Shown here: positions 62,541 to 63,338 of the stretch, in pieces | Numbering within the stretch: position 1 is the first letter of the stretch | How the letters are laid out: each line of letters begins with the position of its first letter | NCBI RefSeq assembly: GCF_024700885.2 | Contig: NZ_CP117016.1 | Strand: one strand, 5' to 3' | From: Escherichia coli | GTDB taxonomy: Bacteria; Pseudomonadota; Gammaproteobacteria; Enterobacterales; Enterobacteriaceae | DNA: 64,000 bases | Program-made: the position numbers and the translations under genes | The notes under the pieces: generated by a model | The model's database searches: none | The model's input: only the letters and a program-made list of their open reading frames with translations | What the model was told of the DNA's origin: nothing

Positions 62541-63338
62541 ATGCTAAAGGAAATAAATGACAATAAACTAACAACAAACTTTATAAGAATAAAAAGAATA
62601 ACTCTAAATGCTTTTACAATAATGCACACTGATAATTGTTTCATCACACTCAAAAATGAAAGAGATTGTATTACCTGTACTAAAGACAATTTTCTCTTTC
62701 TAGAAAAAAATATGACATTTTCATGTGAGATCGTCAAAGTTAACGAAAAACTACCGCCATTTAGTATTGTGAGTTTCGATAGAAAATCGCAAATACTACT
62801 GAAAGATATTTTGAAAGAAATATATCCACTCTTTATGGGGGGCTGTGATATTCAGAGAGAAAAAATAATTACGGAAAACTCCATTGCACCTCAGTACCAG
62901 CTATTTGAGCTTATTACAAGAACAAATGACTTAAAACTAAAAGTTATTAAATCGGCCTATCTTATAGCGACAATGAAAAATCATGCAAAGATAATAAGCT
63001 CTTTATATGCGTCATGTGGAATAACCTTTACCGATAAGGTAAAAAATGAGTTAAGAAAAGATCTATCAAAGAATTGGAAGATAAGTATGATTGCAGATAA
63101 ATTCAATATATCTGAAGTATCAGTAAGAAAGCGCCTGAGTTCAGAAAAAACATCTTTCAGTCAGTTATTACTTCAGGCCAGAATGGATAGAGCCCTTCAA
63201 TTAATCCTGGATAATGAATTACCGCTCTCCTCCGTTTCAGAAAGTATAGGAATATCTAGCATGCCATATTTCATTAGAGTATTCAAATATTTTTTTGGAA
63301 TAACACCAAAACAATTCTCAATTTATTTCAGAGAATAA
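62541..63338 (+). CDS. AraC-family virulence regulator of the AggR/Rns/CfaD type
   Basis: 265 aa, AT-rich; C-terminal HTH region ..KIISSLYASCGITFTDKVKNELRKDLSKNWKISMIADKFNISEVSVRKRLSSEKTSFSQLLLQARMDRALQLILDNELPLSSVSESIGISSMPYFIRVFKYFFGITPKQF closely parallels AggR/Rns as recalled. Confidence 0.8.
   Translation: MLKEINDNKLTTNFIRIKRITLNAFTIMHTDNCFITLKNERDCITCTKDNFLFLEKNMTFSCEIVKVNEKLPPFSIVSFDRKSQILLKDILKEIYPLFMGGCDIQREKIITENSIAPQYQLFELITRTNDLKLKVIKSAYLIATMKNHAKIISSLYASCGITFTDKVKNELRKDLSKNWKISMIADKFNISEVSVRKRLSSEKTSFSQLLLQARMDRALQLILDNELPLSSVSESIGISSMPYFIRVFKYFFGITPKQFSIYFRE

Follow-up and report, generated by a model that had tools for sequence, protein, structure and literature searches.

A chromosomal AggR/Rns-group regulator gene beside AAF-like fimbrial, dispersin-like and aat-like genes in Escherichia coli MLI114

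We analysed a 64,000-nucleotide stretch of Escherichia coli DNA (contig NZ_CP117016.1; hereafter the window), of which positions 42400-64000 match the chromosome of E. coli MLI114 (NZ_CP117013.1) at 100% identity. Near its end, at 62541-63338 on the plus strand, the window carries an intact gene for an AraC-family protein related to AggR and Rns, and within 16.4 kb, measured from the start of the first chaperone gene to the stop codon of the regulator gene, it also carries a fimbrial operon, a gene for a dispersin homologue and an aat-like operon. A preliminary description of this stretch had named these same genes and proposed a chromosomal module resembling the AggR regulon of enteroaggregative E. 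coli (EAEC). Our phylogeny and analysis of cis-elements support that proposal, the regulation itself being predicted, and we use "module" below for the regulator gene and the three units beside it. MLI114, of sequence type ST349, is an extended-spectrum beta-lactamase isolate from a soldier with diarrhoea in Mali and was published as free of enteropathogenic markers (source paper of the strain); typical EAEC strains have been reported in the ST349 lineage (PMC7500659).

The regulator and the three units beside it

62541-63338, plus strand: predicted AggR/Rns-subfamily AraC-type transcriptional activator, 265 aa, WP_021523955.1 (open reading frame, Pfam, PDB and tree evidence)

The regulator gene begins with ATG, seven nucleotides downstream of a GGAG Shine-Dalgarno sequence, and encodes a protein identical to WP_021523955.1, which carries the bare RefSeq label "AraC family transcriptional regulator". 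Residues 184-259 match HTH_18 of Pfam (E 4.9e-13), and there is a further match to HTH_AraC (E 1.4e-5); the two correspond to the double helix-turn-helix (HTH) of AraC-type proteins. Searched with phmmer against the sequences of solved structures, the protein matches CsvR best (9GFP; residues 13-264, E 2.3e-48) and Rns almost equally well (6XIU; residues 14-264, E 1.8e-47), and the matches to GadX (E 1.8e-15, C-terminus only) and ToxT (E 1e-7) are much weaker. Its identity to AggR is 36-37% (37% by BLASTP over 253 aa, E 5e-54), with 53% in the C-terminal part (residues 161-265) and about 24% in the N-terminal part (residues 1-160); its overall identity is 36% to CfaD and likewise 36% to the Rns/CfaD group, rising to 52% for that group in the DNA-binding domain. 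The similarity to AggR, Rns and CfaD claimed for the C-terminal domain therefore holds and extends over the full length, and the word "highly" in that claim was too strong for 53% identity. The recognition-helix motifs of both HTH units are kept relative to AggR and Rns (SE(V/I)(S/T)(V/I)RKRL and YFIR-F--FGITPKQF). With 37% protein identity to AggR, while known aggR alleles are about 92-100% identical in their DNA, the gene is not aggR itself.

In a neighbour-joining tree of 17 regulators from plasmid records (200 bootstraps; RegA, PerA and ToxT are not among the 17), the protein groups, at 100% bootstrap, with AggR, CfaD and four other plasmid regulators, among them a Rns/CsvR-type protein of enterotoxigenic E. 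coli (ETEC), and this clade leaves out VirF and three further AraC proteins. This is the placement that the preliminary description had proposed to check. Within the clade its sister group, with 84% bootstrap support, consists of a few uncharacterised regulators that are 40-45% identical to it. Judged by its sequence, the protein is a divergent AraC-type virulence activator of the AggR/Rns group. NCBIfam gave sub-threshold matches only (HilD, GadX and YdeO). A protein search returned nothing above 45% identity except the cluster of identical proteins, and four relatives at 44-45%; as this word-indexed search missed AggR and Rns, relatives were then sought by tblastn against plasmids. Our literature search found no paper characterising this regulator.

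The neighbouring genes, compared with pAA-EA11 of E. coli O104:H4, are as follows.

46923-47690, plus strand: AggD-like periplasmic fimbrial chaperone, 67% to AggD over 252 aa; NCBIfam SafB-type chaperone
47709-50315, plus strand: AggC-like fimbrial usher, 70% to AggC over 843 aa; NCBIfam usher, E 4.8e-263
50331-50765, plus strand: minor subunit or AfaD/AggB-like invasin, 54% to AggB; annotated "AfaD family invasin"
50876-51391, plus strand: major pilin, a new variant of the aggregative adherence fimbria (AAF) type, 23% to AggA, 28% to Agg5A and 31% to AafA
51917-52264, plus strand: dispersin (Aap) homologue, 115 aa, 64% to Aap over 116 aa, full length
52459-54079, no strand: remnants of IS481 and IS66 transposases, between the dispersin gene and the aat-like operon
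54203-59135, plus strand: aatPABCD-like operon of full-length homologues in the same order as on pAA-EA11
54203-55345, plus strand: AatP-like permease, 58% to AatP
55342-56580, plus strand: AatA-like protein (TolC-like outer membrane protein), 51% to AatA
56477-57301, plus strand: AatB-like adaptor, 58% to AatB
57267-57911, plus strand: AatC-like ABC ATPase, 71% to AatC
57924-59135, plus strand: AatD-like acyltransferase, 51% to AatD; weak CN_hydrolase match, E 0.0098
59195-62284, no strand: insertion sequence (IS) debris between the aat-like operon and the regulator, namely a group II intron maturase fragment, IS481 and IS66 fragments and a frameshifted IS3

All ten putative target genes have full-length homologues in the AggR regulon of pAA-EA11. 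The order chaperone, usher, minor subunit, major subunit is the layout of AAF operons, which are chaperone-usher systems related to Afa/Dr. The mature major pilin is basic (isoelectric point 9.2) and has no match in Pfam or NCBIfam; its sole relatives in the plasmid database are AggA, AafA and Agg5A, the pilins of AAF/I, II and V. The dispersin homologue, also without a match in Pfam or NCBIfam, has a signal peptide with the cleavage context NVFA|GGGG, compared with NAFA|GGSG in Aap, as well as two cysteines and a mature isoelectric point of 9.17 (8.96 for Aap).

Predicted AggR-type boxes before the three units

AggR-dependent promoters have been described by a rule, WWWWWWWTATC, whose A/T tract may contain up to two mismatches, and a -10 hexamer 21-23 bp downstream (PMC6392122). 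Because our first -10 criterion was too strict and missed several known AggR promoters on pAA-EA11, we relied on alignments to published sites. The resulting predictions, all on the plus strand, are listed here.

46826-46864, plus strand: predicted promoter of the fimbrial operon, box GCTTTTTTATC (46826-46836), 22-bp spacer, -10 TATTAT (46859-46864)
51797-51835, plus strand: predicted promoter of the dispersin-like gene, box GTTTTATTATC (51797-51807), 22-bp spacer, -10 TAGTAT (51830-51835)
54111-54149, plus strand: predicted promoter of the aat-like operon, box AATAATTTATC (54111-54121), -10 TATTCT (22 bp) or TATATT (20 bp)
62348-62358, plus strand: tentative candidate AggR-type box TTTTTATTATC upstream of the regulator, possibly for autoregulation

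The preliminary description had suggested Rns-type sites upstream of 46923, 51917 and 54203, and AggR-type boxes do lie at all three places, two of them positionally homologous to AggR-dependent promoters. Upstream of the dispersin-like gene, both the box and the -10, which begins with TAG, line up with the aap promoter mapped on pAA (TTTTTTATC, 22 bp, TAGCCT), and the aat region (GATTAATATCATAAAGTGATAATAATTTATC) lines up with the promoter mapped for aatP in 042/pAA (TTATTATCATAAACTTATAGTTATATATC, 21 bp, TACATT). The fimbrial box, GTTGCTTTTTTATCTG, is close to the characterised aap box of strain 042, GTTGCTATTTTTTATCTG. Its conservation extends to ECONIH1 and NCTC86, and the -10 elements, like the boxes, are preserved across variants of the island. 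Composite boxes stand before all three leading genes and before none of the module's internal genes, and outside the module only one of the 38 open reading frames (ORFs) of at least 150 aa has such a box, a site before efeU that is a chance occurrence. In dinucleotide shuffles of the 200-bp upstream regions, the probability of a site was 0.03 for the fimbrial operon, 0.13 for the dispersin-like gene and 0.12 for the aat-like operon.

Because boxes precede all three leading genes, and two of them align with the mapped aap and aatP boxes, we think it likely that the regulator is the dedicated, cognate switch of three adjacent AT-rich units, fimbrial, dispersin-like and aat-like. Such a regulator would bind the A/T tract and TATC box about 22 bp upstream of a weak -10 and replace the -35 element, probably counteracting silencing by H-NS as in AggR/Rns systems. 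Its binding would turn on an AAF-type fimbria with a basic, novel pilin together with the dispersin homologue and the homologue of aatPABCD. By analogy with Aap and CexE, the dispersin homologue would be a substrate of the Aat-like system, acylated at its N-terminal glycine and exported to the cell surface, where it may keep the basic fimbriae extended. Glycine acylation of a dispersin-type protein was reportedly described by Icke et al. in 2021.

Several observations count against a dedicated switch. The link between regulator and promoters is inferred from sequence, and so are binding to DNA, transcriptional activation, a function for the fimbria and any phenotype in adherence. The N-terminal domain of the regulator is just about 24% identical to that of AggR. 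The box is a degenerate motif that occurs often in AT-rich DNA (within the aat region, 1.15 times per kb on each strand), which makes positional homology the stronger argument, and the aatP-like promoter can be read with a -10 spacing of either 20 or 22 bp. No canonical composite site lies upstream of the regulator gene itself: box TTTTTATTATC at 62348-62358 is identical to a functional afaB box (quoted in PMC6392122), and its distance to the nearest -10-like element, TATACA at 62383-62388, is 24 bp, outside the 21-23 bp range. The position that aligns with the autoregulatory box of aggR reads TGTC, not TATC, in an alignment too AT-rich to trust. As this upstream DNA is moreover cut by IS66 and IS3 remnants about 255 bp from the ATG, the regulator may be poorly expressed, and both autoregulation and adequate expression are uncertain. 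Finally, the aat-like operon and the regulator are missing from about 13 genomes (human, dog and cat isolates) in which the fimbrial operon and dispersin gene persist at 99.9% identity, and the substitutions between island variants are too few for a firm test of selection.

Preservation among genomes and rival explanations

Counts were taken among 5,426 complete E. coli genomes. The fimbrial and dispersin part occurs in 53 of them, the aat-like operon in 39, the regulator (at least 80% covered) in 40 and the whole module (at least 80% covered) in about 39. Every copy is chromosomal, and the three islands that we examined, those of MLI114, ECONIH1 and NCTC86, have a common context. Carriers include human, animal and water isolates, NCTC86 among them. 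By megablast, aggR was found in 60 genomes, always on a plasmid, and no module-bearing strain appears by name among these 60 aggR-positive complete genomes. The regulator is also encoded, at 100% identity, on contig JAIJJM010000532.1 (2,263 bp), which was binned to a metagenome-assembled genome of "Collinsella sp." and is almost certainly a mis-binned E. coli fragment.

All 11 module genes are intact in MLI114, and all ten that can be aligned without gaps are intact in ECONIH1, relative to whose variant the module shows a pN/pS of about 0.3. In the divergent island variant of ECONIH1 the regulator protein is identical, a single synonymous change separating the two genes. Among MLI114, ECONIH1 and NCTC86 the major pilin gene has indels and an identity of only 84.5-85%, while the other intact module genes are 98.8-100% identical, a divergence that suggests an expressed surface antigen under selection, or recombination or diversifying selection. 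In NCTC86 the regulator and chaperone genes each carry a 1-bp indel and the usher gene is split by an IS3-family element (L016 12124-16852, 32241-32606), so that the putative switch and its fimbria have decayed together.

The alternative that survives best is that the module is a cryptic relic, a silent and decaying integrated piece of a pAA-like plasmid whose regulator is unexpressed or inert and which has no current function. The surroundings speak for it: debris of IS481, IS66, IS3, IS5 and a group II intron lies between every unit, the DNA upstream of the regulator is truncated by IS remnants, the iro and SPATE genes nearby are pseudogenes, NCTC86 has the frameshifts in regulator and chaperone and the IS in the usher just described, and thirteen genomes lack the aat-like operon and the regulator. 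We nevertheless hold it to be unlikely, as silent decay accords poorly with 11 intact genes in MLI114 and ten intact gap-free-alignable genes in ECONIH1, with about 39 genomes that cover at least 80% of the whole module, with a pN/pS of about 0.3 and a regulator protein that is identical across variants, with preserved boxes and -10 elements, and with a pilin that has diverged by 15% between flanks more than 99% identical, as is typical of an expressed surface antigen.

A second alternative accepts the promoters as genuinely AggR-type and has them driven mainly in trans by a plasmid-borne activator of the AggR/Rns type, the chromosomal regulator being redundant or controlling unlinked genes. 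The boxes fit the AggR consensus, and partly match known AggR sites. Members of the family are said to cross-activate each other's promoters, as studied by Munson and colleagues. MLI114 also belongs to ST349, the lineage in which typical EAEC has been reported (PMC7500659). Against this stand the absence, by strain name, of module-bearing complete genomes among the 60 aggR-positive ones, the near-identical counts of regulator and aat-like operon (40 versus 39 genomes) and the decay of the regulator along with its neighbours in NCTC86, and we regard control in trans as quite improbable. Least credible, and largely refuted, is the idea that the regulator is an unrelated AraC protein, for instance one of metabolism or acid response, brought beside adhesin genes by chance IS assembly: IS elements could have joined unrelated DNA, and NCBIfam offers sub-threshold matches to HilD, GadX and YdeO only, but the full-length match to CsvR/Rns (E about 1e-48, versus 1.8e-15 for the C-terminus of GadX and 1e-7 for ToxT), the 100% bootstrap support inside the AggR/CfaD clade and a GC content of 32-34%, like that of the module and unlike the 50% of the core, leave it very little room.

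Relation to known systems and island setting

The kind of gene set found here is already known, and what the chromosome carries is a complete, divergent second version of the enteroaggregative adhesion kit. With the AggR regulon of EAEC pAA plasmids (aggR, aggDCBA/AAF, aap, aatPABCD and aar) the module shares its genes and their order within operons, the promoter architecture (WWWWWWWTATC 21-23 bp before the -10, with positionally homologous aap and aatP promoters) and the pairing of a basic pilin with a basic dispersin. The two differ in location, as the AggR regulon is plasmid-borne in 60 of 60 aggR genomes whereas the module is chromosomal in all 40-53; in aar, which the AggR regulon has, whereas the module has no aar or other ANR gene in 64 kb plus 20 kb; and in sequence, the regulator at 37% being far outside the range of aggR alleles and the major pilin being 23-31% identical to those of AAF/I, II and V. 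AggR, Rns/CfaD and RegA each co-regulate the same set of genes (PMC4038620). Rns, CfaD and CsvR of ETEC include the closest solved structures to our regulator over its full length (6XIU, 9GFP), and their regulon of CFA/CS pili, CexE and Aat follows the same logic of pilus, dispersin-like protein and Aat (PMC4038620). The adhesin there is of the CFA/CS type, unlike the AAF-type adhesin of the module, and where Rns has the fatty-acid contacts H20 and R75 the module regulator has N23 and S78/D80. RegA of Citrobacter rodentium provides a precedent for a chromosomal AggR-family regulator over fimbriae, a dispersin-like gene and aat (PMC4038620); that system differs in having an ANR gene (ROD_02851) and the Kfc fimbria (kfc), which is not AAF-like. 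We compared RegA with the module regulator by description, since a scan of GTDB genomes returned no C. rodentium RegA sequence.

The module had been noticed in part before. The island ROD17 of E. coli NCTC86 is the same island, and its authors reported an Aat/dispersin-like system, a substrate gene and an AAF-like chaperone-usher locus and mentioned no regulator (Dunne et al., 2017; PMC5382810). The window holds an intact version, NCTC86 one with disruptions in regulator, chaperone and usher. The second dispersin-like pseudogene that Dunne et al. reported downstream of aat was not found. Other dispersin-like and aat-like genes have been noted, with unclear significance (Petro et al., 2020). 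We regard the module as a genuine paralogue of the AggR regulon in a fairly good state of preservation, set apart from known ones by its chromosomal site, the lack of a linked Aar/ANR gene, the lack of conservation at H20 and R75 and the heavy IS debris.

The nearest relatives of the regulator (40-45%) are encoded on the E. coli plasmids pRHB27-C20_3 and 2009C-3133 unnamed3 and on the chromosomes of Citrobacter braakii and Citrobacter sp. FP75. They differ from the module in having no aat or dispersin gene within 10-20 kb, and in the three that have fimbrial genes nearby these are type-1-like and unrelated to those of the module. An ANR gene adjoins the Citrobacter and pRHB27-C20_3 regulators, and the incomplete gene table of 2009C-3133 lists none. 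Outside E. coli the nearest relatives are the chromosomal regulators of C. braakii ATCC 51113 and Citrobacter sp. FP75 (42-43%). Each has as neighbours an ANR gene and an unrelated operon of the chaperone-usher type, and neither aat nor dispersin genes lie within 10 kb.

Two features that restrain other members of the family appear to be missing here. In Rns, H20 and R75 are needed for fatty-acid binding and inhibition (PMC12379584); H20 aligns with N23 of our regulator and R75 with S78 (MAFFT) or D80 (HMMER), R81 being close by, and the pocket residues I14 and I17 of Rns are kept. As for ANR partners, tblastn with four ANR proteins gave nothing credible in the 64-kb window and 20 kb downstream, whereas the same search picks up Aar on pAA (E 2.6e-6), and a comparison of all small pAA ORFs with the window gave no Aar/ANR-like match. 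The sole sub-threshold ANR match lay inside darT and was dismissed. An ANR gene is adjacent in all seven relatives that were scanned for ANR or have a complete annotated neighbourhood, and none is listed for two relatives with incomplete plasmid gene tables. The circuit might have lost both known family brakes, the linked ANR partner and the H20/R75 contacts, and give aggR-negative strains an aggregative fimbria/dispersin phenotype that would form part of "atypical EAEC"; we put this forward as a speculation, and a rather doubtful one. If it were true, those who benefit would include Escherich's lineage and multidrug-resistant phylogroup D clones, and the part of atypical EAEC explained would be aggregative adherers that are negative in aggR/aatA/aap assays.

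In practice EAEC is defined by aggR, aatA and aap probes, and such probes, like VirulenceFinder-type databases, miss the module because its proteins are only 37-71% identical. Among complete E. coli genomes about 1% have the module, which makes it roughly two thirds as frequent as aggR. Provided that the regulator is active, the module would be a concrete candidate for aggregative adherence in aggR-negative strains and a sixth AAF-like antigen type, and would offer a naturally occurring variant in which to study the contribution of ANR proteins and of fatty-acid sensing to AggR/Rns-type control; if it is silent, the module would be a fossil of plasmid capture.

The GC content of the module is 27-43%, compared with about 50% in core genes, and that of the regulator, 32-34%, fits the module and not the core. 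IS481, IS66, IS3, IS5 and group II intron debris separates the units, and on pAA plasmids aap, a group II intron and aggR occur in an arrangement similar to this mosaic. A remnant of a serine protease autotransporter of the Enterobacteriaceae (SPATE; EspI-like) lies just past the regulator and the window end (L001 21850-22719), and the group II intron maturase fragment, at window 59195-59647, lies on the other side of the regulator; their presence beside the regulator hints at a plasmid origin for the segment. Because the IS, intron and SPATE mosaic resembles the layout of pAA plasmids, the module looks like a captured segment of a pAA-like virulence plasmid inside a decayed chromosomal island. 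No tRNA integration site was found within the window.

The suggestion that this island marks a hybrid pathotype is not supported. The iro (salmochelin) locus at 41990-46400 is a remnant in which iroN is missing its N-terminus, iroE carries a frameshift, iroC has both a truncation and a frameshift, iroB is absent and iroD is the sole intact gene, and this degradation makes the idea weak. The supposed deo genes amount to a DeoR-family regulator beside sugar genes, carriers of the module are not among the aggR genomes by name, and MLI114 was reported without enteropathogenic markers. The island also holds genes of other kinds. Defence-type genes lie at about 19050-25450 on the plus strand (an AAA-domain protein of 1,652 aa, its partner of 478 aa, and a remnant of a TOTE-system primase) and again past the window (L001 23700-33100: an M48 peptidase, a type I restriction-modification system and DarT-DarG). 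A gene annotated as "enterotoxin" (WP_000757210.1, about 630 aa) lies at about 25920-27810 on the minus strand, beside malX and a malY-like gene.

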